Shown here: piece after piece, positions 11,488-47,759 of the stretch
Position numbering within the stretch: position 1 is the first letter of the stretch
Layout of the letters: the number at the start of each line of letters is the position of its first letter
IMG/VR virus record: IMGVR_UViG_3300044612_000719
Span: 33,276-97,275 of that record
Origin: a virus
DNA length: 64,000 nucleotides
Strand: one strand, 5' to 3'
Program-made: the position numbers and the translations under genes
Notes under the pieces: generated by a model
Database searches by the model: none
What the model was told of the DNA's origin: nothing
What the model saw: only the letters and a program-made list of their open reading frames with translations

Positions 11488-13407
11488 TTAACCTCCGAAG
11501 ACTATAGCCATGGCAATGGCTTTACCTGTTGAAACTGGGGTGTCCCATTTTAGACCAGTTGCTGTAGATGAATCTACTGTGAGAACTTGTCCAGCCGAGC
11601 CAGCCGTTAGTCCCCCAATTGTGTTATCAGCGGTTCCTACAAGAAGGTCACCTTTAGCGTTAATAGTATTTACAAGAGCGCTAAAAGGTGATGCACCAAC
11701 TTCAATCCAGTTTGTTCCGTAATAAACGTAGGTACCACCCGTGAGGGAGTTAAACCAGATTTGTCCAGAAACAGGGGCGGCTGGGGCAGAATCTTGCACA
11801 CTGGCAGTTACGCCTGATGCACCGATTTCAATCCACTGCGAATCGTAATAAACAAATGTTTGGGCAGTATCGGTGTCAAACCACATACTTCCTTCAAGTG
11901 GTGACGCTGGGGCAGAAGAACTGGACACCATTCGTGCGCCCGTACCAACACCACCGACTTCAATCCAAGATGAGTCATAGTAAACAAAGGTTTTGCCGTT
12001 GGTTGATTGGAACCAAAGTTGACCTGCCAAAGGTGATGCAGGGGCTGTATCAGAAATGGTTGCGCCACCAATAATCGTTTCTGGAACCCATGCTGTGCCA
12101 TTCCACTTCAAGAACTGTCCAGACGATGGTGATGCGGCGCTTACGTCGCCAATATCGTCAAGTGCGTTAATTGTTGGAATTGAATCTGGAACCCAAGCGG
12201 TACCATTCCACTTCAAGAACTGTCCGTTTGATGGGGACGGTACAGAAACATCACCAATATCATCCAATGTGTTGATGGTTGGGATAGTTCCGTTAACCCA
12301 GCGGGTTCCGTCAAACTTTAAGAATTGACCGTTAACTGGGGTAGTAAGAGTGACATCAGAGAGGTCAGTTAAATCCTCTACAAGATCTGGTTCTCCACTT
12401 GCTTGTAGCCAATGGTTATCGTAATAGATGTATGTTTCTAATGTTGCCGAGTTAAACCAAAGGTCGCCCACTTCAGGGGATGCAGGGGCAGTTGCTGAAA
12501 CTTCAAGGCTGGCTCCACCACCTGCTGACGCAGCAGTCCATAGTGAGCCGTTGTATGTAAGAACATCTCCAACATTTGGTGATGGGATGCTTACGTCATG
12601 TAATTCGTCTAGTTCGTATCCGTTTTGTGTAGCAACATAAACAATACCGTTGTTGGTTGCACGGACAACTACACCTATGAATACAAGATGGTCTGGGGCG
12701 GTTGGTTTGGTTTTAGTAAACGCACCGTTTTCTCCAAGCCACAAAATGTCACCAGCGGTATAACCAACAGACAAGTTAATGCCATCAACATAACCACGAG
12801 TAACAACTGGACCATTATTACTTGCTGTAATGTTCGCACCAACAAGACCAATCGTTTTTGACGAGGTGGCATCAGAGTTATTATCTGCTCTTTTTACTGT
12901 GGCATGGTCACCCGTAGCACCAAACAAATAAACAGCGGTGCCTGTAGTAAGCGTTGTCGCTTCAGCGTTACGAACATATGAAACAACAGAAGAATAAGTG
13001 TTTACCCAATTAGTTCCATTATATTCAAGGGTTTGAAACTCTTCTGGGGAAGTAATTACAACATCAGAAAGGTCATCAATAGATCCAACAGTGCTGGCGG
13101 TTCCTGGAACAAACTTGGTTCCGTCAAACTTAAGAACTTGATCGGTTGTTGCACCTGTTGGGTCAATCTCAATGCTGTCTACAAACAGAACAGGTGTTTT
13201 AAAAGTGTCGTCTGTTTGTAGTACATCAGCAGATGCACGATAGAGGTTTACGTCACCAGCAGATGCGCCACCACCCCAAGTAAGACGACCACCCGCTTCA
13301 ACTTTTAAGCGAGAAAATGTATCTTGGTCAACATAGACGGTGACAGCATCAGAACCAGCAGAAGCAAGTTGCTTAACAGTAATAGGTACTGTAAATTTCT
13401 GTGCCAC
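11488..13407 (-). CDS. Long repetitive tail-fibre protein
   Basis: LDDIGDV...GQFLKWNGTAW repeats; AP.SP..G.LWF.S....YVYYD..W repeats; ends GKAIAMAIVFGG. Confidence 0.8.
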   Translation of the reverse strand: MAQKFTVPITVKQLASAGSDAVTVYVDQDTFSRLKVEAGGRLTWGGGASAGDVNLYRASADVLQTDDTFKTPVLFVDSIEIDPTGATTDQVLKFDGTKFVPGTASTVGSIDDLSDVVITSPEEFQTLEYNGTNWVNTYSSVVSYVRNAEATTLTTGTAVYLFGATGDHATVKRADNNSDATSSKTIGLVGANITASNNGPVVTRGYVDGINLSVGYTAGDILWLGENGAFTKTKPTAPDHLVFIGVVVRATNNGIVYVATQNGYELDELHDVSIPSPNVGDVLTYNGSLWTAASAGGGASLEVSATAPASPEVGDLWFNSATLETYIYYDNHWLQASGEPDLVEDLTDLSDVTLTTPVNGQFLKFDGTRWVNGTIPTINTLDDIGDVSVPSPSNGQFLKWNGTAWVPDSIPTINALDDIGDVSAASPSSGQFLKWNGTAWVPETIIGGATISDTAPASPLAGQLWFQSTNGKTFVYYDSSWIEVGGVGTGARMVSSSSAPASPLEGSMWFDTDTAQTFVYYDSQWIEIGASGVTASVQDSAPAAPVSGQIWFNSLTGGTYVYYGTNWIEVGASPFSALVNTINAKGDLLVGTADNTIGGLTAGSAGQVLTVDSSTATGLKWDTPVSTGKAIAMAIVFGG

Positions 13408-16115: not shown

Positions 16116-18029
16116 TTAAACTATTGATTGACGTCTAGAGACGACTGGTGCAGGCAATATAAATGATACCGTAGTGGCGGCTACCACGACACGACGAGCA
16201 CCCACGGAAATCGTAGAGTCTGTCGGCACGTACTCGTCAAACCCTCCCTCAAAGACGTTAATTTCTTCTTCAAAGGCTTCTTTTACTTCGGTTGGTGCTT
16301 CCAAAAGTGCTTCAACAATGGCGGCGGCTTCTTCTCCCGAGAGTTCCCCAGTATCAATAGAAGCAAACACTTCAGTTGCTTGGTCTCCAGTAATGCTTTC
16401 CAAAACTGCGGCGCTAGTAGCAAGTTGGGTTGCTTGGTCACTAGTTACGTCAGTAGCCAAGATGGTGTCCACAACCTCTTGTACCTGTTCCTCAGTAATA
16501 TTGTCGGATTCCAAAATGTTCAAAACCTCATCTAGAACTTCTGCGGTTATTTCAGTAAGTGTGTCTAGGTTCTCAACCACAGCGTCCACAATCTCTTGAA
16601 CTTGTTCTTCAGAGATATTGTCTGAGTTCAGAGCGTCCACAACTTCGGACAAAACCTCTGTGGTTAACTCTTCAATGTTGGTCAATTCCTCAACTACAGC
16701 CGCTACTTCTTCTTCAGTCAATGGCTCTAAATTTGGCTCTAAATTTGGCTCTGGCTCAGTTGTGATTGTGGGTTCTTCCACGGTAATCTCTGGGGGTGCT
16801 TCAGTTGTTATGGTCTCTGGCTCAGTGGTCTCTGGTTCTGGTTCAGTTGTTGTGGTTGTTTCTTCGGGAAGCGTCTCCTCTGGCATGGGTTCCTCTACTA
16901 CTGTCGTTGTGGTGCCTGTCGGTACTTCTACGATCGGTTCAGGTTCGGGTTCAGGCTCAGGAGCGGGAGGAACTGTAGATGTTGTGGTGGTGCTTGTTGG
17001 GGTCACCGTTGTCGTGGTACTTGTTTCTGGGACTGTTGTGGAAGTTGAAGAAGTAGATGTTGTCGTCGTCTGAGGTACGGTACTTGTTGTGGTCGTGGAT
17101 TCCGTGGTCGGCGTCTGCGGCACTGTTGTTGTGGATGTTGTCGTCGTCGTTGTGGAAGTGGTGGAAGAAGTAGTCGTAGTTGGAGTTGGTTCAACTACGG
17201 TTGCGTCAACACTTGCATAAGGCCCATATATACATGAACCGTTGCCTTCTCCAACACAAGGTGCGTTACCAGCAGAAACTTTAAACCTAACTAAACCATA
17301 CCCAGAAGTGTTTGGAAATTGGTAGGCACCAATCGTGTATGAAGTGTTTTCTGCACGAGTCCATACACCCCAGCCACCAGATTCAACACCTTCAGTCACG
17401 TCAAACCATGTAATTGTGTAAATGTACGGCTCAAGATTGCCTGCGTCAGGTGCATCCCAATCAAGGGTTACACTTCCGTTCTCGTTTGCAACAGCAGTAA
17501 GGTTTTCCACAGCGTTGTAGTACGGCTCAACTGTTGTCGTTGTGGTTGGTGGAATTGTTGTAGTTGTTGTAGTTGTGGTACTTGTCGTTGTAGATGTTGT
17601 AGTGCTGGAAGTAGTCGTAGTGCTAGATGTTGTAGTGGTAGAAGGTGCATTTGATGGGGCAATGTTTACGTCAATCACATAGGAAGTTCCATACCATCGG
17701 TTTGGGTCACCACAACAAACACCTGTTCGCAAACGGTAAGTACCAGAATTTAGATTTATTGAGATGTATGAATCAAGCCCGTATTGCGAGTCGTCATTTT
17801 CAGCAAGAACTTGGTTGTTGGAGTCATAGAGCCAAAGCATTGAGTCAATGCCATACTGTTGTGCGTAGGTACGAACCGTGAATGTCTGAGCCTGACTAAG
17901 AGTAAAGAAGTAATCTTCAGCGCCAGTAGTTGTAAAAGAATCCGCATTTGCGGTAGAAACGCCTACTGGAGAAATCCAAGCAAAGAGCGCTACAGGGAAG
18001 TAGATCCAAAAACCTTTACGAAGCCTCAT
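16116..18029 (-). CDS. Secreted/membrane-anchored mucin-like protein (signal peptide, PPC-like domain, Fn3-like domain, Thr/Pro/Glu-rich stalk, acidic helical repeats)
   Basis: AAGGAGGGG RBS before ATG 18029; MRLRKGFWIYFPVALFAW...ANA signal; DSMLWLYD...LAENDD; long poly-Thr tracts. Confidence 0.75.
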   Translation of the reverse strand: MRLRKGFWIYFPVALFAWISPVGVSTANADSFTTTGAEDYFFTLSQAQTFTVRTYAQQYGIDSMLWLYDSNNQVLAENDDSQYGLDSYISINLNSGTYRLRTGVCCGDPNRWYGTSYVIDVNIAPSNAPSTTTTSSTTTTSSTTTSTTTSTTTTTTTTIPPTTTTTVEPYYNAVENLTAVANENGSVTLDWDAPDAGNLEPYIYTITWFDVTEGVESGGWGVWTRAENTSYTIGAYQFPNTSGYGLVRFKVSAGNAPCVGEGNGSCIYGPYASVDATVVEPTPTTTTSSTTSTTTTTTSTTTVPQTPTTESTTTTSTVPQTTTTSTSSTSTTVPETSTTTTVTPTSTTTTSTVPPAPEPEPEPEPIVEVPTGTTTTVVEEPMPEETLPEETTTTTEPEPETTEPETITTEAPPEITVEEPTITTEPEPNLEPNLEPLTEEEVAAVVEELTNIEELTTEVLSEVVDALNSDNISEEQVQEIVDAVVENLDTLTEITAEVLDEVLNILESDNITEEQVQEVVDTILATDVTSDQATQLATSAAVLESITGDQATEVFASIDTGELSGEEAAAIVEALLEAPTEVKEAFEEEINVFEGGFDEYVPTDSTISVGARRVVVAATTVSFILPAPVVSRRQSIV

Positions 18030-18041
18030 GCCCCTCCTTAG

Positions 18042-18087
18042 ACACGAAAGACGGGCCGCCCGCAGGCAACCCGCCTTCGTTGAGTCT
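18042..18087 (-). promoter_or_regulatory. Long 5'-UTR hairpin between a TACAAT -10 and the RBS of the mucin-like gene
   Basis: Minus strand ACGAAGGCGGGTTGCC-TGCG-GGCGGCCCGTCTTTCGT with G-U pairs on the coding strand. Confidence 0.55.
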
Positions 18088-18145
18088 CGGTAATACATTG
18101 TACTACATTTTTAACAATGTACTCGTAGAATAGAATAGAAAACAC

Positions 18146-20333: not shown

Positions 20334-20507
20334 TCATCCTCCATTGGAATAAAAGCCACGACCGACCAGATTAACTGCTGGGGAGAAGTAGACAGGGCGT
20401 AACTGCTCACCGCAGTCTGGACAGTTGATTACTTTTTGTTCGTCATAGATACTGCGGGTTTCTTCATGACGGTGGTCATTCCCGCACTTGTAAGCATATG
20501 TTGGCAT
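20334..20507 (-). CDS. FmdB-family zinc-ribbon protein, leaderless (not in ORF track)
   Basis: MPTYAYKC...H...CPDCG...RPVYFSPAVNLVGRGFYSN; TAGACT-N6-ATG. Confidence 0.8.
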   Translation of the reverse strand: MPTYAYKCGNDHRHEETRSIYDEQKVINCPDCGEQLRPVYFSPAVNLVGRGFYSNGG

Positions 20508-20516
20508 GACAGTAGT

Positions 20517-20972
20517 CTAGCGCTTGTAGCGGGCGCCTTGCTTACCAAGGTTTACACGTCCTAAATTTTCAGATACATCTTCACCAGTATCAAGATCAGT
20601 CATAGATCCTGGGCGAATCTTTAGAGGGTTACCACCACGAAGGTTAGGACCAACAGTTCCTCTAACAAAAGTGTTACGTGTCTTTGCTTTTGTTGGATTT
20701 TCTAGATGTTTTTTAAGTTCCCTAGCGTCTACTGCCATACTGGCGTTTTCTAATGAAATGTTTTTACTGTGCCCAATAAGGAGTCGGGAGTTATCAAGAA
20801 CGCTGTAGATAGGTTCACCTAAGGCTTTAGTAGCAGGGGTGTGCATATGGACGTTGACAGGTGTGCCCCTTAGACCAACCATGGATTCAGGACTGATAAT
20901 GCGAACAGGTGTTCCACGAACAATGTGCTCTTCAGAAAACTGAATGCCATTAAGGTCACGTCTACTAGCCAT
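20517..20972 (-). CDS. Hypothetical protein with N-terminal L-x3-QF tag
   Basis: MASRRDLNGIQF. Confidence 0.65.
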   Translation of the reverse strand: MASRRDLNGIQFSEEHIVRGTPVRIISPESMVGLRGTPVNVHMHTPATKALGEPIYSVLDNSRLLIGHSKNISLENASMAVDARELKKHLENPTKAKTRNTFVRGTVGPNLRGGNPLKIRPGSMTDLDTGEDVSENLGRVNLGKQGARYKR

Positions 20973-21814
20973 TAGTCAATCCCTGGAAGTTTCATTTGCT
21001 CGCCTTGCATGGCAGGGCGCTTTTCACGTTTATTTAATCCAGCAAGTCTATAGGCTGTTTGCCTACCTTCAGCAATTGTTTGAGGTGACAAACGTTCAGC
21101 GTTACTAAAGTCAAGGTGTTCTGGACGATGAGCCATACTCCATTTAGTGTCGTCAGGGCGCATTAGTGTTTGCCTACCTGACTCATTATTTACGGCTCCC
21201 TTAATAACTCCCTTTTCTATTCCTTTACGAGCCAACCTACTGCTGTATTGCGTCATACTTCCAGGGCTGTGAAACTCTGCATCAGGGTGGTCATTCATAG
21301 CGATACCTATAAGGGTAGGTAAAGAACCACGCAATGTAGGGTGCATAAAAGCATTTTCAAATTGAACTTTACGTGGTTTGCTGGTAAACAACTCTGTAGG
21401 TACAGGTATGTCTTTGCGAGTTTCCGCAGGGGCATTGTGGTCTAATGCCGCACGTAGTTTCTTTGTACGCTCAGGATCACGTGTTGCGATCATGTCACTT
21501 GTTGCTTTTTGATTTTTGTCCCACATGTAATGCTGGCTAATGCCAGTGTCTAAAGTCTGTTGGGCGTGTGGGTAACGAGGGTCGTGCGTGTTTGCTTTTA
21601 ATCTTTCCATGTTTTCTGGATCAAAATCAAAGTTAACAATAGTTTCAGCAGGTTCTATTGTTTCCACTGCAATGTGTCCATAAGGTACGTGTGTTGGAGG
21701 TTTTTGACTCAGTTCATCAAACTGGTTACCGTGAACCAACTTATCCCCGACAATAGAATACTTAGTGTTTCTACCACCGTACCAGTGACTATCTTTCTTA
21801 TAAAACTTAGCCAT
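20972..21814 (-). CDS. Hypothetical protein, paralog of 25000-25659
   Basis: Shared PYG, TELFT..P, (Y/F)SS(R/K)LA and C-terminal Q..LPG motifs. Confidence 0.65.
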   Translation of the reverse strand: MAKFYKKDSHWYGGRNTKYSIVGDKLVHGNQFDELSQKPPTHVPYGHIAVETIEPAETIVNFDFDPENMERLKANTHDPRYPHAQQTLDTGISQHYMWDKNQKATSDMIATRDPERTKKLRAALDHNAPAETRKDIPVPTELFTSKPRKVQFENAFMHPTLRGSLPTLIGIAMNDHPDAEFHSPGSMTQYSSRLARKGIEKGVIKGAVNNESGRQTLMRPDDTKWSMAHRPEHLDFSNAERLSPQTIAEGRQTAYRLAGLNKREKRPAMQGEQMKLPGID

Positions 21815-23505
21815 TAAACTTCAAAACCTGGTAACTGTAGTTGTTCACTTTTAGAAGCAGTTTTAGCATTAACACGGTCTTGGTAGAATTGACGTGCTTC
21901 CCTACCTGCTGTTCTTAAACTCTTATTTGGGTTGCTATCAATAGCATTACGAACGTGCTCATGGGCGTCGTATAAGTGACCCAACATTAGTTTATTAGCA
22001 AGGTCTCGGGTTGGTCGGGTTTCATCTGCTGTGGAATGACGCATAACTAATTGCTTGCGTGTAGGTGTTTCTCTAAACACTTTAGGATCAGCAACAGCGC
22101 TTGCGTGGGCACGCACTGCCGAGTACACAGCCCTTTCAGTATTAGTAGTCCAACGACGGTGTCCTGTAGTGTATCCAGAACTGGCGTGTAGATCACCTAC
22201 ATCACCAGTTTCAAACATTCTTTGTGAATACTTGTTGTTATCATCTGCACTACCCCATAGATCCCTATGAGCATCAGCAATACCTTCTGATACAGGGTCT
22301 GCCCCACCTTTGTCGTAAATGTCAAAACGATGCTTATTATCCATTTTGTGACCCATCTCATGGATGATGGTAGAGCGAGACACACTTGGATTTGTTTTTG
22401 TCACAATGGTTTTACCACGAACTGTTTTTTCAACAGGGGTTCCCCCAGTTACTTCACTTCGTGTATGCCATGTTTTTTCTGACCACCTGTTTGCACCATA
22501 CCCATATACACCAGCGTATGGTTCTACAGCAACATTTGGGTTTTTCTTTTTAATGTCAGAACCTGTTCCAGAAAATGCATTTATTTGATAACCCTTTTCA
22601 ACAAAGTCTTCTGCTTTAATATTTTGAGCATTTACTTGTTTGTTTCCACCAATCATGTTTGGTGCTTTAGGAATCTTCTTTTCAATTTCTCCGACTGTGT
22701 TGTATCTTGAATAAGAGCGAGTGCCTGGTTTGTCTTTTTGCGTCCATTGACGACCTTCAGGGGTAGTGACAACTGCACCAGCCCTTAATGCATCGTTAAT
22801 TGGCAGGCCCATGCGGTGAGATTGTTCATCACCTAAATCTTTACTTAATTGTTGAATAAACTTAGGATTGTTTATCGGTGTCTTGTCGCCACCTGTTATC
22901 ACTGTACGGGTAGTGTCAGGTTCTTTGGAATAGGTTTTTTCGTAGTTTAATGGTTGACGAATAACATCAATTCTTCCAGAAGTAACCCCTTCAAGACTCG
23001 CTCCTGGGAATGTATTGTCAATGTGCCCTGCATGTCTTACGTCCTCAACAGCCACTGCTAACGCTGGCTGTTTGTTTGCAAACTCTGAATTAATCATGTG
23101 GGTAGACATTTGAGAGGTATCTACGGCGTGGGTGTAGGCATTACGTGAATCTTCGGCAGTTTTCTTGCTCAAAGGTTTTCCAGTCAAATTCCTAGTACGA
23201 GCCACACCAGCATTTTTACGGTAGGTCTCAAGATCAGACATTCCTAGACCTTTTTGAATTGCTTCAATGCGCTTTTCATGAGGGATCAACGGGTCATTGC
23301 GTCTACCCGTACCTGTTTCAGGACTGAACAACATTCCTTGTGCGTTAACAGTTCTTGCTTGAGCACGTGCCGCAATACCTGAAGTTTGTTCTATTTCGTA
23401 CTTATGTTTACCTTCAGCAAAACCATGAGGGTTAAGCAAAGACGCATGAGTCTCACCTTGGTCATCATGCCAGTAGGTGTTTTCAAACTGTCGTCCAAGA
23501 GCCAT
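21814..23505 (-). CDS. Large protein with HExxH zinc-metalloprotease-like motif; leaderless
   Basis: TIIHEMGHKMD...SEGIAD; MALGRQF N-terminus; QLQLPGF C-terminus; TAAACT-N6-ATG. Confidence 0.65.
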   Translation of the reverse strand: MALGRQFENTYWHDDQGETHASLLNPHGFAEGKHKYEIEQTSGIAARAQARTVNAQGMLFSPETGTGRRNDPLIPHEKRIEAIQKGLGMSDLETYRKNAGVARTRNLTGKPLSKKTAEDSRNAYTHAVDTSQMSTHMINSEFANKQPALAVAVEDVRHAGHIDNTFPGASLEGVTSGRIDVIRQPLNYEKTYSKEPDTTRTVITGGDKTPINNPKFIQQLSKDLGDEQSHRMGLPINDALRAGAVVTTPEGRQWTQKDKPGTRSYSRYNTVGEIEKKIPKAPNMIGGNKQVNAQNIKAEDFVEKGYQINAFSGTGSDIKKKNPNVAVEPYAGVYGYGANRWSEKTWHTRSEVTGGTPVEKTVRGKTIVTKTNPSVSRSTIIHEMGHKMDNKHRFDIYDKGGADPVSEGIADAHRDLWGSADDNNKYSQRMFETGDVGDLHASSGYTTGHRRWTTNTERAVYSAVRAHASAVADPKVFRETPTRKQLVMRHSTADETRPTRDLANKLMLGHLYDAHEHVRNAIDSNPNKSLRTAGREARQFYQDRVNAKTASKSEQLQLPGFEV

Positions 23506-23514
23506 ACACTTAGT

Positions 23515-24156
23515 TTAGTTGATATGAACGCTTCCCGAGAACGACACACCTTCTAAATTAAAATTCACAAAAGGGTTTAGAGAGTACACAGTGCAACCAA
23601 ACTTTTCTGCTAACCATCGCTTTAGCATGATTAATTGAGTGTTGTACAACTCCCAAGGGTTATCACCAGGGACATAAGCGCCAAAACGATCTCTACCGTT
23701 CAACTTGCCACAGTCGGCACCAACCAACACAATGTGTTTAGCGCCCATGTAGGCGGCTAAGTGCATCGCACCATGAATACTGGAGGCACCAATGACCAAC
23801 CCATCTGTTGGAGCGTCCTTACCATAGGGGTCAAAACTCGCTCCAGGCTGTCCTGTCTCCGTTTCAAACAGCACAACGTTATCGGGAACGTCTCCGACCC
23901 ACTCTTCAGCGTTCCCATGCTGTTTTTTAGGCGTAAAAACGTAATTTGAACACTCTGACATCTCTAATGAGTCGGCGTGATAGTGCGAAAACGTGTAGTA
24001 GTTCAATAAATTAAACGTTTTGCCAACAAAATTGACCCCAACACACACTTTGTCATCAAAAAATGACGGTGTTAAGAAATCTAAAGAGCCACCAGAGCCT
24101 AAAACCCAGACAGTTTCACCTTTGTACAGGTCTTTGAAGGTTTCTAACGCTGGCAT
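23515..24156 (-). CDS. MptE-like/DUF115 (Maf-type) Rossmann-fold transferase; leaderless
   Basis: FKDLYKGETVWVLGSGGSL...VGVN...SSIHGAMHLAAYMGAKHIVLVGADC. Confidence 0.7.
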   Translation of the reverse strand: MPALETFKDLYKGETVWVLGSGGSLDFLTPSFFDDKVCVGVNFVGKTFNLLNYYTFSHYHADSLEMSECSNYVFTPKKQHGNAEEWVGDVPDNVVLFETETGQPGASFDPYGKDAPTDGLVIGASSIHGAMHLAAYMGAKHIVLVGADCGKLNGRDRFGAYVPGDNPWELYNTQLIMLKRWLAEKFGCTVYSLNPFVNFNLEGVSFSGSVHIN

Positions 24157-24197
24157 GGCTAGAGATTAGCCCCTTTCACCGAAAAATTGTACAAAAG

Positions 24198-24578
24198 TTA
24201 GTCTAAATCTTCTTCTGGTTGATAGGAAGTACGGGAATAATATTTGTCTTCAAACTTTGAAGCAATATGTGTGGATGCTGGGTTGATAGTCAAGCCCCAA
24301 TCAACATGTGATTTTGGGTAACGGTTGTACAAGTGCTCCATAAGGCGTTGAGCATGTCCTTGTCCTTCAACATGGCTCTTTAAATAATCTACTTCTATTC
24401 TTGAGGATGGGTCAGAGTGTGGGTCGTTATAATGCTCAAAAGACACACGTGCAAGGTCTAAGCCTTTTTTAGGGTCTGTCAACGTAAGGGAATGCCATCC
24501 TCTTCCACCAGACACGCCCTGTCCTAGTTTTTGATGGACTATTTTAAATTGTCCACCTAAATTCTCGTGTGCCGCCAT
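24198..24578 (-). CDS. GNAT-like acetyltransferase with MAAHENLGGQF tag
   Basis: IEVDYLKSHVEGQGHAQRLM resembles GNAT motif A. Confidence 0.55.
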   Translation of the reverse strand: MAAHENLGGQFKIVHQKLGQGVSGGRGWHSLTLTDPKKGLDLARVSFEHYNDPHSDPSSRIEVDYLKSHVEGQGHAQRLMEHLYNRYPKSHVDWGLTINPASTHIASKFEDKYYSRTSYQPEEDLD

Positions 24579-25000
24579 TATCTTTTCCTTGTAGGTGGGG
24601 TAAATACATATGCGTCAATGGATGGGCGTTTATCAATTAAAGCAGCAGCAATACGGTGATGTCCATCTAGAATTTCAGCAGTACCTTTATGCATATATAC
24701 CTGTGGATACTCCAAATGCTCGTATTCTGGGTCTTCTTCCTCACCGTATATGTCTGATTTTCGCTCAGAACCTGCTTTCCTGTAAGCATCTACTGTTCTG
24801 GGATTTAAGTCAGTTTGTTTGTTGCTAAAAAACTTGGTGTTTTGAAGGTCTAGTTGTGTAGTTCCACGTTCTACTGCTTCAGAATAATCTTCTTTAAACA
24901 GTGGTCTACCTTTCATGGGCCAATTTTTGGGAGTAGATGTACCAATACCTACTTTTTTAAGGCTGTCAAACTGACCGCTTAAGTTCTCGTGTGCACCCAT
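24578..25000 (-). CDS. ParB/Srx-like domain protein with MGAHENLSGQF tag
   Basis: P.V...EILDGHHRIAAALI. Confidence 0.7.
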   Translation of the reverse strand: MGAHENLSGQFDSLKKVGIGTSTPKNWPMKGRPLFKEDYSEAVERGTTQLDLQNTKFFSNKQTDLNPRTVDAYRKAGSERKSDIYGEEEDPEYEHLEYPQVYMHKGTAEILDGHHRIAAALIDKRPSIDAYVFTPPTRKR

Positions 25001-25659
25001 TACTTGTCTTCCATACCTGGGAGTTGGGGTTGATCAAACTTAGGTGCAGGCGCCGTTTGTTCTTTTCTAGGACGCAACGTCTCTTTAAGGAACTGTTTAC
25101 CTTTCATGACCTCTGACCGTGTGAGTTCAAACGCATTTACACCTAGTCGGTCAGTTGTGATCCTGTGTACGCTTCCCACCTGACGGGCATACACATCGCC
25201 TTCATTGGGGTCCTCATCGGTTTCCATTTTAGGGTTCTCATAACTAGGCTTCAATAAACCACGTTCATGTGCATTCTTAGCCAGTTTGCTACTAAAGTTA
25301 CTTAAACTGTCTGGTGCCACAACCTGAGCGTTCGGATGGTCTAGTTTGGCTAGTGCCATCACTGTCATCATGTGGGGACGGACACGCTTGTCGGCGTACA
25401 TGAGGTTGACGTGCAGTTCCTCAGGTCGGTGCGTGAACAACTCGGTAGCGTTTTTCCTCATCGGGTGACCATCACTATCAAAGTTAGGGTCTTCTCGGGA
25501 TGGCGTGTGGTACATGCTGGCGTACCCGTAAGGATACTGAGGCTTACCCCCTGCTCTAGCGGTCGCCGCCGCATCGGGGGTGTCATGAATAACACCATAC
25601 GTGGGGTAACTTACGCCGTCACCATAACCTTTGTTCGGGTTTTTGAAGTAGCGAGCCAT
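25000..25659 (-). CDS. Hypothetical protein, paralog of 20972-21814
   Basis: MARYFK; PYGYA; TELFTHRP; FSSKLAK; QPQLPGM. Confidence 0.65.
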   Translation of the reverse strand: MARYFKNPNKGYGDGVSYPTYGVIHDTPDAAATARAGGKPQYPYGYASMYHTPSREDPNFDSDGHPMRKNATELFTHRPEELHVNLMYADKRVRPHMMTVMALAKLDHPNAQVVAPDSLSNFSSKLAKNAHERGLLKPSYENPKMETDEDPNEGDVYARQVGSVHRITTDRLGVNAFELTRSEVMKGKQFLKETLRPRKEQTAPAPKFDQPQLPGMEDK

Positions 25660-26036
25660 TAGTCTTTATCCCATATTTTACTTACACGGTGCTGTACAGG
25701 GATTTCCATGTTTGGATCAATATCGTGTGCTGTGGCAATACGGTGGTGCCCGTCACTAATCATTTTATGTGGAAACTGTCCGATGTGGGTGATGCTTATA
25801 GGCTCTTCTACACCCGTAGTTTGAATACTTTCACGATCTGCACCTTTTTTCCATACTTTGTATTTGTATGTACTTTTGTCCTCAGACATGGGTTTTAGGT
25901 GCTTCAAGCCCTCAGGGTCAGGGGTTCTGTCCAGATTCAATATAGGCCATGAGTCACCAGCGTGTACATTCATCAGTTCACGGGCAGGCATGAACATTTG
26001 CAATTGTTCGTGGTTGAGGCTCTCGTGTGCCGCCAT
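25659..26036 (-). CDS. ParB/Srx-like domain protein with MAAHESLNHEQL tag
   Basis: ESIQTTGVEEPI...ISDGHHRIATA...IPV. Confidence 0.75.
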   Translation of the reverse strand: MAAHESLNHEQLQMFMPARELMNVHAGDSWPILNLDRTPDPEGLKHLKPMSEDKSTYKYKVWKKGADRESIQTTGVEEPISITHIGQFPHKMISDGHHRIATAHDIDPNMEIPVQHRVSKIWDKD

Positions 26037-26194
26037 TACTTCTTCTTCCGTTCCTGTTTTTGCTTATTCTTCTCTAGCAGGTACTCAGGGTCACGCTTAG
26101 TAAAGCCTGCGGCTTGATGGATCTCGGAGCGGGGCACAGGCTCACCATCTACCCATACGTAGTCATTGAACTGTTGTCCGTCTAGGCGTGGCAT
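26036..26194 (-). CDS. 52-aa basic protein with LDGQQF tag; leaderless (not in ORF track)
   Basis: MPRLDGQQFNDYVW...KQKQERKKK; TATACT-N6-ATG; stop overlaps next ATG. Confidence 0.65.
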   Translation of the reverse strand: MPRLDGQQFNDYVWVDGEPVPRSEIHQAAGFTKRDPEYLLEKNKQKQERKKK

Positions 26195-26211
26195 TTACCT
26201 AGTATAGATGG

Positions 26212-26610
26212 TTACTTACGTGGGGGAAGAGTGTCACCTGTAGATTTAGCCCAAGCGTCGCCTTCTGGGGTGCGCTGGGGGGAATGGCTTGGGATAGGTA
26301 TAACGCCTTTAGAAGCCCTGGCAACGGTTTGAGAATGCTTCAGTGCCGCTGTAGCCAAACCTTTTCTACGATGTTCTGGTGACACTTCAATTTCTAAGAT
26401 TTCAGTAGCAGAATCAGGTCTTTCGGATTTTTCCCACTCCATGAATCCCACACGTCGTCCACCTTGAGGAAGCCCCAAAGCATCAATACTTCGTGATGTG
26501 TCCACGATGTCCGTTCTCCATGTATCTGGAGTGGACTCTGGGAGGTCAGGATTAGAGCCAATAGGGTGCGTTCTGAACTGATAGTTGTTCAGGTTGTTCC
26601 TAGCAGGCAT
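26212..26610 (-). CDS. GNAT acetyltransferase with NLNNYQF tag; leaderless
   Basis: EILEIEVSPEHRRKGLATA...HS...TPEGDAWA; TATACT-N6-ATG. Confidence 0.8.
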   Translation of the reverse strand: MPARNNLNNYQFRTHPIGSNPDLPESTPDTWRTDIVDTSRSIDALGLPQGGRRVGFMEWEKSERPDSATEILEIEVSPEHRRKGLATAALKHSQTVARASKGVIPIPSHSPQRTPEGDAWAKSTGDTLPPRK

Positions 26611-26747
26611 GTTTCAAGTATAGGGCTATTTGGGCGAGGTGGGTGGTCCGTCGGATTTTTGAATGGGGCTATTGGGCAGTTGAGCGTTGGGTGGGGCCTC
26701 TGTCCTACCCCCAGCCCCGCCACCACGGCTCGCTTAACCATGGGGGG

Positions 26748-28847: not shown

Positions 28848-28941
28848 GAGTGACCTAGTCACTCACCCCTAGCGCCTCGGGCGTGCCGATTCAATTCGGA
28901 CTAGGGACTGGGCAAATAGCCCTCGGAGCAGAGGAGGCTCC
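28848..28941 (+). repeat. Class II intergenic element + variant SD hairpin
   Basis: CCCTAG-CGCC.TCG.GGCG-TG-CCGA.TTCAAT.TCGG-A-CTAGGG; GGAGC-AGAGGAG-GCTCC. Confidence 0.75.
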
Positions 28942-28946
28942 ATACC

Positions 28947-29483
28947 ATGAAAACATCAGAGATAAAGCAGATAATTGCAAAGGATCCGAACGCTGTGTTT
29001 CGCATTGGCGGACGTGGTCGGTACACGCACTACGGCTCAATCACCAAGATTGAGGAGAAGGTCGTGGACACCTACAGCGCATGGGGTCGTAAGTCAGGCA
29101 CCCGTGTTGATGTGCGATTCACAGTGCGTTACGAGTACTTCACTCGTGGCGTTGAGGCTCAGTTTGGTTACCCCGAGAAGTTGCCTTCAGTGATACTGGA
29201 CGGAAACTCGTGGACTAAGCCACGTGACATTGAATGGCACGTAGCGGACTTCGGTATGACCATTGAGGAGTACGTAGCAAAGACTGATGCTGAAGTGAAG
29301 GCGGATTGGCAAGCCAAGAAGGACGACCAATACGCAAAGCAACAGCAGGTCAATGCGATCATCCGACACATCAGTAGCCCAACGGTTACCGATGCCGAGT
29401 GGAACGAACTCAACGATGATCTAGAGCGACTCAGTGTTCAGACATTGCAATTAATCAATCAGAAGATCGCATCACTTGTGTGA
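28947..29483 (+). CDS. Early hypothetical protein
   Basis: ORF track, strong RBS. Confidence 0.75.
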   Translation: MKTSEIKQIIAKDPNAVFRIGGRGRYTHYGSITKIEEKVVDTYSAWGRKSGTRVDVRFTVRYEYFTRGVEAQFGYPEKLPSVILDGNSWTKPRDIEWHVADFGMTIEEYVAKTDAEVKADWQAKKDDQYAKQQQVNAIIRHISSPTVTDAEWNELNDDLERLSVQTLQLINQKIASLV

Positions 29484-39196: not shown

Positions 39197-39613
39197 TTAA
39201 GGCTGAATCAACCTGAACTTAAGCATCTCTAAATCGGTCAGTTCCACACCCATTTTAGGAATCTCTTGAATATTTATTTCATTAATCTCTTTTGAGTCAG
39301 CGTCTACACATTCAGTGCAACGACAACCTTGTCTGTAACGAGTCCATGTACCGTGTGCACGAAGTACACTTGCTTTTGGATGTTCAACAGTGAGCGCTGT
39401 TCGCTCCTGTGGTGTGAGTCCGCCCCACAATCCCCACTTCTCTTCAAGCCCATCGTCTAAACATTCTTTCCACACAGGGCACTGACGACATACTGCTCTA
39501 GAAATTACATAGTAATTCTCTGGTACGTCAGTATCTAGTGGTGGGTACCAAAGATCAATGTGACGGTCTTTGCACAAAGCATCAATGCGCCAGTCGTCTT
39601 GATGGTTAGGCAA
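39197..39613 (-). CDS. whiB: WhiB-family transcription factor with extra C-terminal HG....Y..GCRC..C zinc motif
   Basis: WRIDALC...VCRQCPVWKECL...GLWGGLTPQER. Confidence 0.9.
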   Translation of the reverse strand: MPNHQDDWRIDALCKDRHIDLWYPPLDTDVPENYYVISRAVCRQCPVWKECLDDGLEEKWGLWGGLTPQERTALTVEHPKASVLRAHGTWTRYRQGCRCTECVDADSKEINEINIQEIPKMGVELTDLEMLKFRLIQP

Positions 39614-40413: not shown

Positions 40414-41850
40414 TCAATTGTCTTCAGATAGATCCAAGACATCTGCGTACATAGCGTTGGTTGCTTGTGCGCCCATACCGCCACCTTCAAGCATGCGGTT
40501 GGCTTCTCCAGCCTTAGCACCGAACAAGCGAGACAAAACTCCACTGGATCCTCGGGCTTCCATCTCTAAACGGATGGTGTCACGAGTATCGGATATGTTC
40601 TTGAAGCGATCAATGAGATTAAACAAACGATCCATTTCATGTGACAAGGCTGGGTCAAGACCCTGACCTTCTAGTTCTTCTGCAAAGCGAGCGAACATCA
40701 CACGACCTACTTGCATCTCTAACAAGGCACGCATCGCCGCCTGAAGTTGATCCTTTGTTCGGATTTCAATCGGAAGTTTAAATGCGCATTCTGTGTTTTC
40801 TTGAAATGAAGGACATCTGCTACTCAAATAGCAACTATTGCACTGGCGCAAAGGGTTCGCATTGTAGCGAATTACGTTGATCTTTTCGGGGTCTATTTCT
40901 ATAGATTCCCCTTCATTATCAACGGTTTGCGAGCCAAAGGAGGTGATGGTCTCTACCCCCATTACTGGTAGCAATACACGGTCACTCTCGTGCCTCTTAT
41001 TTGGCACGTTGATAGCAATAGTTGACCCCCCAGGAACCCCTAAAGTAGGGGTATGCGGTATAGGTGCGATAGCAACTATTTCATCATTCTGAGGGTCTGT
41101 GAACTCTAGTTCGTCATCGTCATTCATAGGGTCATAGCCCCCAAAAGTGTGGGTCTCCCATTGTTGCCAAGAGGCAATTGCAAGGTTACCGATTGCGGAT
41201 ACGTTGTCTTCCATTACAGCATCAAAGTCAATCCCAAGTCGGATGATGTCTGCACGATGCTTTCTACGTGACGACTCTTTCTGTTGTGCTGGGTAGCGGC
41301 GCAAGCCGTGACCGTCCCACACTTGTGTCTCTCCGTAGCGGATAGCGCTCGTCCACGATCCTGCAATGACGGTATCCCATTGAATACGTTCAATCAGGTC
41401 AGGCTTAGAGGTAATGCCGACTAACTTGGCGCTCCAGCGCTGTGAGATGGATGAGATACGAGCAATGTTGCGCCCTGTGACCGCTTTGTCGCTAATCGCC
41501 GCACGACCATACTTCTGGCAAAGCCATGCCAGACGCTCCAGATCCTGCTCATCATTCCATAGTGGGTAGTATTTCTCACCCAACCAAACGCCATCGTAAT
41601 CAGGGCGACCAATTACAATATCTATATTATCGGCGTGATCACGTACAAACTGGTCAAAGCGCCCTGTGTCCTCATCGTTCTCGGATGTGTACACAATGAC
41701 CTCGCCTCCTCCGTAGAGGACGCTGAGATCTAGTTCTTTCTTCTTGGGGATCGGAAAGTGGGTCAGGTTGATGGCGTAGCGTTTAACGCCAGCGTCCATG
41801 AGCATCTTGCGATACGTCCCCTTTTCCGCTCCACCAAAGAAGATCTTCAC
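40414..41850 (-). CDS. Large hypothetical protein with Cys cluster (C..C.....C........C)
   Basis: RQCNSCYLSSRCPSFQENTECAF; GTG start overlapping upstream stop. Confidence 0.7.
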   Translation of the reverse strand: MKIFFGGAEKGTYRKMLMDAGVKRYAINLTHFPIPKKKELDLSVLYGGGEVIVYTSENDEDTGRFDQFVRDHADNIDIVIGRPDYDGVWLGEKYYPLWNDEQDLERLAWLCQKYGRAAISDKAVTGRNIARISSISQRWSAKLVGITSKPDLIERIQWDTVIAGSWTSAIRYGETQVWDGHGLRRYPAQQKESSRRKHRADIIRLGIDFDAVMEDNVSAIGNLAIASWQQWETHTFGGYDPMNDDDELEFTDPQNDEIVAIAPIPHTPTLGVPGGSTIAINVPNKRHESDRVLLPVMGVETITSFGSQTVDNEGESIEIDPEKINVIRYNANPLRQCNSCYLSSRCPSFQENTECAFKLPIEIRTKDQLQAAMRALLEMQVGRVMFARFAEELEGQGLDPALSHEMDRLFNLIDRFKNISDTRDTIRLEMEARGSSGVLSRLFGAKAGEANRMLEGGGMGAQATNAMYADVLDLSEDN

Positions 41851-42086
41851 TCTTCGTAGCCAGCCTTGCGCCAAACCGAAGGGCTGTGGTTCTGCTCTAC
41901 GAGCATCGCTTCAAGGTCATCTACGTAAAGACGCAGGATGTGGATGCATGGGTCATCGCCATCGTCCCATGCCATGTCTTCGTCCTCGGTGGATGGTAAA
42001 CCATCGTGTGTTGAGCACACTGGTGGACCAACCCACTTGTTCTCTAATCCCATTTTAAGCCATGAGTCAAAATCCATTTCAGACAT
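41847..42086 (-). CDS. Small protein (CSTHDGLP...DPCIH family)
   Basis: Recurrent actinophage motif. Confidence 0.65.
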   Translation of the reverse strand: MSEMDFDSWLKMGLENKWVGPPVCSTHDGLPSTEDEDMAWDDGDDPCIHILRLYVDDLEAMLVEQNHSPSVWRKAGYEE

Positions 42087-46866: not shown

Positions 46867-47466
46867 TTATCGCTTCTCGTCCATGATTCGCTTGGTACGC
46901 ACATCCTGTGCGTCTTTTTGCATGGATGGGTTTTTCTTAACTTGTTTAGCGACAGCATCAACCCCACCAGTTTTCATGGTTTTAACTGTTTTTTTGTCAG
47001 CGGTTTCTTGATCACTGCCCATATATTCCATACCACCAGGCTTTAGCCAACTATCGTTTACACGATCATCAGCGGCTTTTGCGGCGTCATATGCCTGACC
47101 TGCCTTTGCGGACTTCGCAATTGTCTTAGGCTTATTGACATTCTTCAAAGCCTTTGCGGTACTCTTGTCTGACTTAGCCTGAGCCTTCCCTGCTGGGGAT
47201 TTTTCGTCAATCCATACCTTGCCACCATCGCCTCTGTCATGCAAGCCGATGTAAACCCTGTTAGTTACCGATGACTTGAAACTTGATGGACCTTCACGGC
47301 GAAGACCAATCTCATTGCGACCTGTTGTCTCGTTGTAACGAGTGTTTTGACCCGTTGAACGAGTTGTTTCTGGTCCAAAAGGAGTTTGAGTAGTGGAGGT
47401 TACACCATGTGGGTCGTCTCCACGACCGTAACTTGCTCCGCCACGAAGTTTGCCAAAAATACCCAT
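46867..47466 (-). CDS. Basic hypothetical protein
   Basis: ORF track, GAGG RBS. Confidence 0.6.
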   Translation of the reverse strand: MGIFGKLRGGASYGRGDDPHGVTSTTQTPFGPETTRSTGQNTRYNETTGRNEIGLRREGPSSFKSSVTNRVYIGLHDRGDGGKVWIDEKSPAGKAQAKSDKSTAKALKNVNKPKTIAKSAKAGQAYDAAKAADDRVNDSWLKPGGMEYMGSDQETADKKTVKTMKTGGVDAVAKQVKKNPSMQKDAQDVRTKRIMDEKR

Positions 47467-47468
47467 GA

Positions 47469-47759
47469 TTACCTCACCACTGGTTTGAATGAGATAGCCG
47501 AAATGGCTTCTCCGTTATCTCCAATAATATCATCAAAGCCAATAATGTAAGTGAGGTCAACACCACGTGGGGCAACAAAGCCTCTAGCAATTGCAGCGGC
47601 TTTTGCTGCTTGGTTGACTGCACTTGCACCGATGGCTCGCATCTTTGGCGATTGCCCAGCGTTTACAGCACGGGCAAGAATAGAGCCAACGCTTTGAGGG
47701 TTGCTGGAACCTGAGACTTTAAGGACGTCTTCAATTGCAGAATTAAGTTCTTGCGACAT
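47469..47759 (-). CDS. spoVS: SpoVS-family (Alba-like) protein
   Basis: VLKVSGSSNPQSVG...RAIGASAVNQAAKAAAIARGFVAPRGVDL...F.DI. Confidence 0.9.
   Translation of the reverse strand: MSQELNSAIEDVLKVSGSSNPQSVGSILARAVNAGQSPKMRAIGASAVNQAAKAAAIARGFVAPRGVDLTYIIGFDDIIGDNGEAISAISFKPVVR

Follow-up and report, generated by a model that had tools for sequence, protein, structure and literature searches.

The stretch of DNA analysed here, referred to as the window, comprises 64,000 nucleotides (bases 33276-97275) of one 97,275-bp virus record, IMGVR_UViG_3300044612_000719. Between positions 20517 and 26610 it carries a block of ten tightly packed minus-strand genes, seven of which open with a similar short peptide, termed here the tag (N-tag when at the N-terminus). 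These seven N-termini had been pointed out in a first-pass annotation of the window, and a check of open reading frames (ORFs) recovered every one of them in place on the minus strand. In general, the tag follows the pattern ...[LI]-[NSG]-x(1-2)-Q-[FL]. Its long form, M-[AGP]-[AS]-[HR]-[ERN]-[NSD]-L-x(2-3)-Q-[FL], is present in four genes; MASRRDLNGIQF is a looser version of it, and MALGRQF and MPRLDGQQF represent a short form. The peptide MALGRQFENTYW also belongs among the tag peptides of this system, alongside MAAHENLGGQF. The remaining three genes of the block, two members of the “MARYF” family and one MptE-like gene, are devoid of the N-tag.

Related loci were collected from IMG/VR and JGI metagenomes, together with three more near-complete genomes, all reached through homologues of the HExxH protein of the block. 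ORFs were called by a longest-ORF rule devised for this analysis; because this makes some starts too long, true tags are shifted into the class counted as located elsewhere in a protein. Loci from one lineage were regarded as non-independent observations. In the source genome and the related loci, QF occupies residues 6-11 in 68 of 573 ORFs, whereas a background rate of 0.0023 at each position would give about 8. Of the strict pattern L[GNS]x(1-2)QF, 72 copies finish inside the first 16 residues and 33 are found at all other positions; composition shuffles yield 0.24. Enrichment at the N-termini of relatives, on which the first-pass annotation had made its proposal depend, is therefore present, at a 25-fold density.

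Codons used for the tag vary within the block (Leu is encoded by CTG, CTC, TTA, and CTT, and both Gln and both Phe codons occur). Among 69 distinct tag DNA sequences in relatives, synonymous usage is close to the background, TTG excepted, and five Leu codons are employed. The spread of tag Leu, Gln, and Phe over synonymous codons indicates that selection acts on the peptide. In the same set, TTG is never found at the tag Leu (0/69 vs 21% in the background), which may prevent alternative start codons beside the true start, and CAG is favoured over CAA for Gln.

These data also bear on an explanation that involves no docking, according to which cassette exchange, or translation-start needs in leaderless or coupled genes, produced the common start as a mere side effect, copied between genes. 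Many tagged genes begin at TAATG overlaps or 6 nt behind a -10-like box, GCACACGAGAA is common to three tags in the source genome, and avoidance of TTG at the tag Leu would be understandable under this explanation. It is contradicted by the free synonymous variation in all three residues (five Leu codons, both Gln, both Phe), by invariance of the peptide across homologues at 25% identity, and by copies in C-terminal tails, where start signals have no role. Altogether, we give it hardly any credence.

The C-terminal copies are accompanied by a second motif, Q-x-x-L-P-G-[FMIL]-[ED], which ends three proteins of the block and is absent from the first-pass annotation. In the following, the tag and this motif are called half 1 and half 2. 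The pattern Q..[LFI]PG[FMILV] is located within 6 residues of the C-terminus in 25 cases and elsewhere in 3, with 0.08 expected at the C-terminus. The HExxH family (29 sequences, down to 25% identity) has few conserved positions, to which N-terminal M-x-L-G-x-Q-F and C-terminal E-Q-x-x-L-P-G-x-E belong; M1, L3, G4, Q6, and F7 are invariant throughout the alignment. Likewise, L213, P214, and G215 are nearly invariant or invariant in the alignment of the “MARYF” family, down to 24% identity.

Both halves can be found in tandem, in the same order, at the N-terminus (MVVELGDQFGQAQLPGV, MDLGDQFKHPQLPFW, MSAQDSLSKAQFTQPTLPGI) as well as at the C-terminus (HLSSQFAQPSFPGMENS, KLSPQFDAHMEQLQLPGLED); LSKAQFTQPTLPGI is a tandem form of the tag peptide. 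Since the tandem occupies either protein end, the two motifs appear to be halves of one composite short linear motif, each of which can stand alone. Of the original description as an N-terminal tag, the strong bias to protein starts holds, but the motif also resides in C-terminal tails of the block proteins. Judged from the sequences, it is read as a putative two-part docking peptide in flexible tails, and not strictly as an N-terminal leader. In AlphaFold2 models the ends are flexible, residues 1-10 having a mean predicted local distance difference test score (pLDDT) of 52 in an ADP-ribosyltransferase (ART) payload and 67 in the zincin, the C-terminal tail of which scores about 50.

Half 1 differs in detail among families and lineages. 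The ART payload family has the constant part M-A-A-x-[ED]-[HN]-[LI]-[NS], and LF may stand for QF. Residues right before the tag Leu vary by lineage (HE[NH]L, [AI]DN[IL], SDH[LV]), which suggests either co-evolution with a receptor or gene conversion within genomes. Two candidate features were rejected in this part of the analysis. A metal site of the ATCUN type (X-X-His) at the mature N-terminus was dropped as the His at position 4 is not conserved, and the N-terminal QF of four structural proteins (scaffold-like, 80 aa, 133 aa, and 519 aa) was not considered a part of the system as it is not conserved in relatives.

Genes of the block and the adjacent features are listed in Table 1. Tagged homologues of the GNAT acetyltransferase (family 4) are present at 7 further loci, and those of the 151-aa protein (family 5) in L001, L004, L008, and L010. 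Homologues of the 52-aa protein (family 6) start with MGIMPAQNNLGNQF, MTDPRHLGPQF, and MDPRHESPQF, and a homologue of the 126-aa protein in L016 with MPARDNLSNQF.

Table 1. Genes and sites in and next to the tagged block, in window coordinates
Feature	Position	Strand	Characteristics
Leaderless-type promoter-like site	26611..26622	-	TATACT + 6 nt + ATG of the first gene; pattern only
GNAT acetyltransferase, 132 aa	26212..26610	-	long-form N-tag MPARNNLNNYQF; Pfam Acetyltransf_1 E 2.4e-7, above cut-off; phrog_1249 acetyltransferase
52-aa protein, basic C-terminal tail	26036..26194	-	short N-tag MPRLDGQQF
ParB/Srx-like, 125 aa, DGHHR motif	25659..26036	-	N-tag MAAHESLNHEQL continuing into QLQMF; family alignment
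“MARYF” family, 219 aa	25000..25659	-	without N-tag; C-terminal motif QPQLPGMEDK
ParB/Srx-like, 140 aa, DGHHR motif	24578..25000	-	N-tag MGAHENLSGQF; phrog_17560 E 2.9e-4
126-aa protein, fold not assigned	24198..24578	-	N-tag MAAHENLGGQF; Pfam only sub-threshold, YunG-like E 0.027
MptE-like / sialyltransferase-like, 213 aa	23515..24156	-	untagged; Pfam MptE-like E 4.3e-6, below cut-off; phrog_4603
Zincin-like metallopeptidase (HEMGH), 563 aa	21814..23505	-	short N-tag MALGRQF; internal QGMLF invariant; C-terminal EQLQLPGFEV
“MARYF” family paralogue, 280 aa	20972..21814	-	C-terminal motif EQMKLPGID
151-aa protein, basic C-terminus	20517..20972	-	N-tag MASRRDLNGIQF
57-aa zinc-ribbon protein (MPTYxYKC...)	20334..20507	-	borders tag array in nearly all relatives

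Proteins that carry the tag are predicted to be enzymes of several unrelated kinds. Two of them had been labelled GNAT-like; the 132-aa protein passes the Pfam GNAT threshold, while no such match was obtained for the 126-aa one. Assignment of ParB/Srx-like and protease payloads among kinds of proteins known to be injected was sustained, the former by a weak profile match and the latter by structure. The profile of the DGHHR family, when compared with the PDB, matches ParB chains only, and weakly (E 0.08-0.9). The zincin model (pLDDT 81.6) has only zincins as its best structural matches (thermolysin, anthrax lethal factor, GtgA, PPEP), with modest Z of 5-6; these came solely from a wider structural aligner, and a Foldseek search of the whole model against the PDB gave nothing below E 0.4. 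In relatives, many payloads have [YF]HG[ST] a few residues behind the tag. The model of one such family (pLDDT 82.4) matches the rifampin ADP-ribosyltransferase Arr (E 2.4e-5), and others are sub-threshold matches to ART-PolyVal. The predicted Arr fold (2hw2, E 2.4e-5) is found in phage proteins of about 120 aa at L009:9425-9790 (-) and in relatives.

A fusion was observed in P0021, a homologue of the zincin, which is joined at its C-terminus to a small MTKxxGLGxYGxxRF protein. In L006, L012, and L016 the latter has a gene of its own immediately behind the zincin; it resembles the N-terminus of a 186-aa protein preceding TerL in G004.

The spread of the system was assessed by two further searches. 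The back-translated tag pattern was located at 11 places in IMG/VR, at least 7 of them inside further tag arrays, while in 596 Gb of bacterial genomes it gave 4 matches, which is about the chance level; the one inspected lies inside a spurious frame. Using solely the HslV-like peptidase of L005 as a query, i.e. neither the tag nor the HExxH protein, 232 viral contigs were retrieved from IMG/VR. At least one ORF starting with a tag was detected in 66 of the 79 loci analysed, and 197 of their 1795 ORFs are tagged. Tags of this second lineage are of the types MSAEDNLSxxQF, MSNLNPxQF, and MSNLSKQQF. Because of this independent route and the arrays in IMG/VR, the tag system can be considered widespread among lake phages, in two or more large lineages. 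After the first 20 residues were removed, tagged proteins of relatives formed 62 BLAST clusters, so the proposed “plug-and-play” arrangement, in which one tag is set on many unrelated and rapidly changing small enzymes, is borne out by at least 62 payload clusters and by a lineage reached without using the tag. The observation made in the first-pass annotation is confirmed, and extended by the second motif, the C-terminal copies, and the second lineage.

The source genome encodes a PolA-type DNA polymerase, a DnaB-like helicase, SNF2-type helicases, a Cas4-like exonuclease, a DpdA-like transglycosylase, and tail fibres. Beyond the window, it carries TerL, portal, major capsid protein (MCP), a metallophosphoesterase, and an HslV/proteasome-like peptidase. 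A WhiB-like protein (39197-39613, minus strand; assigned by eye from the sequence), together with the lake-water metagenomes from which related sequences come, point to an uncultured freshwater actinophage; no RNA run was present among the sequencing runs. Hosts among lake actinobacteria have by now been brought into culture (PMC10202952). Nearest among cultured phages are the Streptomyces phages BRock and Alone3 (~115 kb), with 53-54% identity in the portal and 34-35% in the polymerase; no match to the block or to the zincin was found among GenBank phages by blastn and tblastn.

Two other genes in the window deserve mention. The DpdA-like homologue of queuine-tRNA-ribosyltransferase at 40414-41874 (-), phrog_887, hints that the phage DNA is modified with 7-deazaguanine. 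A 660-aa protein rich in Thr, Ser, and Pro is encoded at 16116-18098 (-), downstream of the tag array; it begins like a signal peptide, and its C-terminus is a hydrophobic, basic anchor. In the second lineage, too, the arrays are followed by large anchored proteins of this sort (L099 11172-14846, L123 11296-13773).

The layout of the promoter-like site in front of the first gene (Table 1) is repeated at 26195-26206, 24157-24168, and 23506-23517. In the whole genome there are 11 starts of the TAnnnT-N6-ATG type, every one in the structural arm plus the block and none in early or replication blocks. A scan for promoter and terminator consensus sequences between 15 and 28.5 kb gave results not above those of shuffles. 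Ahead of the -10-like box of the first tagged gene stands the string AAATAGCCCT (26622-26640), which recurs at ~28915-28930, upstream of an early-operon gene at 28947, and is also placed before the first tagged gene of G001 (12198-12605). In L009:9790-9811 (G004 73778-73799), a divergent gap of 20 bp contains ACTATAAT, with TATAAT one way and TATAGT the other way. Each of these two boxes is 6 nt ahead of its ATG, and the gap is possibly a bidirectional leaderless promoter common to the tag array and the structural arm.

The tag was initially compared with the leader of T4 internal proteins, which is removed by a head protease. This part of the proposal was not supported. Searches of the head module with PHROGs and Pfam identified portal, MCP, and TerL and no known prohead protease family. 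Its order (portal, a 266-aa scaffold-like protein, MCP) is the same in a Streptomyces phage relative, and the N-terminus of the MCP is conserved and aligned from its first residue. In ARTs, QF is situated 0-5 residues ahead of the catalytic HG[ST], and in the AlphaFold2 model its F opens strand beta1; in MTLGPQFHGTS this F directly precedes the catalytic His. Untagged homologues in the ART family start at FHGT, and tagged ones prepend M-A-A-x-[ED]-[HN]-[LI]-N-x-x-Q. Since the F of QF starts beta1, a cut after QF would remove this strand and damage the enzyme. According to the models, the tag is thus probably an uncleaved, flexible extension, and its presence in C-terminal tails also disagrees with a processed leader. 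Basic charge, typical of T4 internal proteins, was tried as a further likeness and rejected, as the median isoelectric point (pI) of tagged proteins is 6.6.

An uncleaved tag could nevertheless dock its cargo on the procapsid interior, scaffold, or portal, so that the enzymes would be injected with the DNA. Half 1 is strongly biased to the N-terminus, and encapsulins provide a model in which short terminal cargo peptides dock to a shell of the HK97 fold. Genomic position is also in favour. The array heads a 60-kb co-directional structural arm in the source genome and is inverted in G004 and G002, where it has a 20-bp divergent start region common with the structural arm. In L029 and G003, TerL-portal follows it at a distance of a few kb, and in the high-GC locus L056 the portal comes immediately after it. 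All 11 leaderless-type starts of the genome fall in the structural arm and the block, and the same portal family (53-85% identity) accompanies the tags in every phage with a visible head module. In addition, the payloads coincide with metallopeptidase (MPTase), ART, DdrB-ParB, and GNAT, the hub domains of phage polyvalent proteins, for which packaging and injection are either known or argued (Iyer et al. 2017, PMC5512222).

Several features are difficult to reconcile with loading into the virion. The motif was not seen in conserved head proteins, where a known prohead protease is also missing, the tag adjoins the catalytic core, and the tagged proteins are not basic. The motif is also present in C-terminal tails, in tandem with a motif that resembles clamp-binding peptides. 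The conserved module includes clearly non-virion proteins (the zinc ribbon, small membrane proteins, the secreted anchored Thr-rich protein) and untagged enzymes. Finally, the cultured Streptomyces phage Alone3 has the same portal family and no tags around its head genes. We regard virion loading as doubtful, yet hardly less likely than the sliding clamp considered below.

Another potential receptor is encoded by the phage itself. An orphan HslV/proteasome-beta-like peptidase is located two genes upstream of the portal (L003:6957-7589; G000:C1:22956-23588, outside the window), and its start, MTTIVG, would expose Thr1 after removal of Met. The tag might direct proteins to this peptidase, or else to the zincin, so that effectors are activated or removed at a set time. 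The HslV-like gene is among the best conserved (59-79% identity in G001, G002, and G004), and no HslU-like partner was noticed. It adjoins the zincin in L005, and in the second lineage it is 0-6 kb away from tag arrays, with tags in the 66 of 79 loci found by HslV alone. The residue that follows the tag Q is always F or L, and these two represent a class of bacterial N-degrons. Furthermore, the C-terminal peptide of HslU, EDLSRFIL, which docks on HslV and activates it (PMC4106860), resembles E-N-L-S-R-Q-F.

Against delivery to a peptidase, HslU tails work only with a free C-terminus, and their F follows L by three residues, versus four or five in the tag. The tail pattern [ED]-D-L-[SA]-[RK]-[FY]-I-L ends in a free carboxyl, while most tags are at the N-terminus and have an L-to-F spacing 1-2 residues longer. 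The 79 loci belong to one lineage and hence count as one observation. Phage DSL-LC01 has an HslV-like peptidase and no tags in 50 kb around the gene, G003 and L029 have tags without HslV in the parts covered, and the zincin is absent from four tag-bearing fragments, syntenic arrays included. Taken together, we find this explanation improbable. As more specific proposals, the zincin as an obligate tag processor was rejected, some of the four fragments lacking it having the same flanks, and HslV as a universal tag partner is not supported, given the untagged surroundings in DSL-LC01; five fragments searched lack the head module and are uninformative in this respect.

In our view, the peptide probably serves as an address or docking tag for a common receptor. 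Half 1, in the form [ED]-[NH]-[LI]-[NSG]-x(1-2)-Q-[FL], and half 2, Q-x-x-L-P-G-[FMIL]-[ED], would be parts of one docking peptide which, placed in flexible N- or C-terminal tails, would tether swappable small host-directed enzymes to one conserved receptor. Invariance of the motif while proteins drop to 25% identity is expected if the receptor is very conserved. The data establish the motifs, their place at protein ends, the selection on the peptide, their spread, and the payload kinds; docking as such and a single receptor for both halves are inferred, and the host beta sliding clamp (DnaN) is put forward as the leading, still tentative, guess for that receptor. Effectors would be loaded on clamps left on host DNA. 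A DnaN-like gene was not found in the complete 97-kb genome, and with its own PolA-type polymerase and no clamp gene, the phage could load effectors onto clamps without harming itself. The most detailed version, in which a two-part code loads interchangeable Arr-like ARTs, GNATs, ParB/Srx nucleases, and zincin peptidases onto the host clamp for takeover by a clamp-independent phage, must be rated rather unlikely; if true, it would make such effectors readable from sequence in hundreds of uncultured freshwater phages.

Textbook clamp-binding penta- and hexapeptides are QL[SD]LF and QLxLxL, and the Hda-type motif is QL[SP]LPL. In orthologous C-termini of the HExxH family and its neighbours, half 2 is replaced by QMKLF, QLSLGL, or QLNLFD, and other proteins end with QLSLF or QFKLF. 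Some orthologous termini thus agree with the clamp consensus exactly (QLNLF, QLSLF, QLSLGL, QMKLF), whereas the main forms deviate from it. Some N-tags continue into QLSMF, QLQLF, or QMPLF, and the N-terminal MAKQLPLPGI resembles the Hda-type motif. PQLPFW is similar to QLPLWG, the motif of mycobacterial ImuB (PMC10421592). NucS, an actinobacterial clamp client (PMC6159521), has tails ending with [DE]xL[RKT]LF in 12 sampled genomes, sometimes followed by acidic residues. Exposure in a flexible terminal tail, a property of clamp motifs, is evident in half 2, 25 of 27 copies of which are no more than 6 residues from the C-terminus, and in the low pLDDT of the termini. MuC of phage Mu is a precedent for a phage protein using the host clamp via such a motif (PMC12867686).

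Other observations weigh against the clamp. The commonest forms, L-x-x-Q-F and Q-x-x-L-P-G-hydrophobic, do not have the consensus Leu at position 4, which fills a hydrophobic subsite, and we know of no precedent for half 1 among clamp ligands. Half 1 has about 70% of its copies at the N-terminus, a location that a clamp ligand does not require. Lineage-specific residues before the tag Leu are easier to explain by a receptor that varies among lineages than by a universal pocket, but the same pattern would result from gene conversion within a genome. In several lineages, the array heads or lies just upstream of morphogenesis genes. The probability left after the clamp, virion loading, a peptidase, and a by-product belongs to some other hub.

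Clamp-type endings were also noticed outside the arrays. Just upstream of TerL in G004 (C1:46251-46487 and 47005-47565; L040), two possible packaging or late-regulator proteins end with ...NNPDQLSLF and ...RQGQLPLDWQ, which are canonical and ImuB-like, respectively. Both are lineage-specific.

If one receptor reads the tags, a simple sequence rule would be sufficient to pick out host-directed effectors of very abundant uncultured lake phages, the second lineage alone being represented by more than 230 contigs in IMG/VR. Whichever of host clamp, procapsid, and phage peptidase it is, the receptor would then represent a new means by which phage weapons are delivered or positioned, and the tag could serve as a tool for sending chosen proteins to it. 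Should the clamp be the receptor, the tool-belt of the host replisome would become a delivery platform for takeover. As a further case of tag arrays in phages, one with two motifs used at either protein end, the finding argues that address tags on effector arrays are a general phage strategy and not a peculiarity of T4.

Comparison with known systems reveals similarities to each of them and differences from all. Beta-clamp motifs (QL[SD]LF, QLxLxL, Hda, ImuB, and NucS LxLF) are likewise peptides of flexible tails in which a conserved Gln is followed by Leu and a final hydrophobic residue. However, the dominant form in lake phages puts P-G before the last hydrophobic residue, and the L-x-x-Q-F half is off the consensus. 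An array of many effectors with common clamp-type motifs was not described in the literature searched.

Cargo peptides of encapsulins are also short, placed at either end of unrelated cargo, and dock uncleaved inside a shell of the HK97 fold. They are built around G-S-L, unlike the tag, and docking to a shell is an analogy only. The T4 capsid-targeting sequence, carried by IPI, IPII, IPIII, and Alt, is a short N-terminal peptide on unrelated small proteins of a fast-changing array, the hypervariable T-even locus, with an ART among its payloads. A leader of about 10 residues common to unrelated proteins of a variable locus is found in the lake phages, too. The sequences are unrelated, however, and the T4 leader ends at an L/I-x-E site cut by the gp21 head protease, whereas the lake-phage tag is found without such a protease family, runs into the enzyme core, has C-terminal copies, and is joined by a second motif.

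In their repertoire, the payloads are closest to polyvalent proteins and MuF-fused polymorphic toxins, in which zincin peptidase, ART, ParB, and GNAT domains occur as several weapons deployed jointly at invasion (PMC5512222). The MPTase, ART, ParB, and GNAT set is present in the lake phages, ParB by a weak match. In polyvalent proteins, domains are fused with each other in a single giant polypeptide, or joined to a head domain with the MuF fold (PMC5512222), with two to fifteen effector domains per polypeptide. Such multidomain proteins were not found here, one homologue (P0021) having a fused small C-terminal protein. Instead, lake-phage payloads are separate genes coding for 52-563 aa, with one domain each and a common tag of 7-12 residues.

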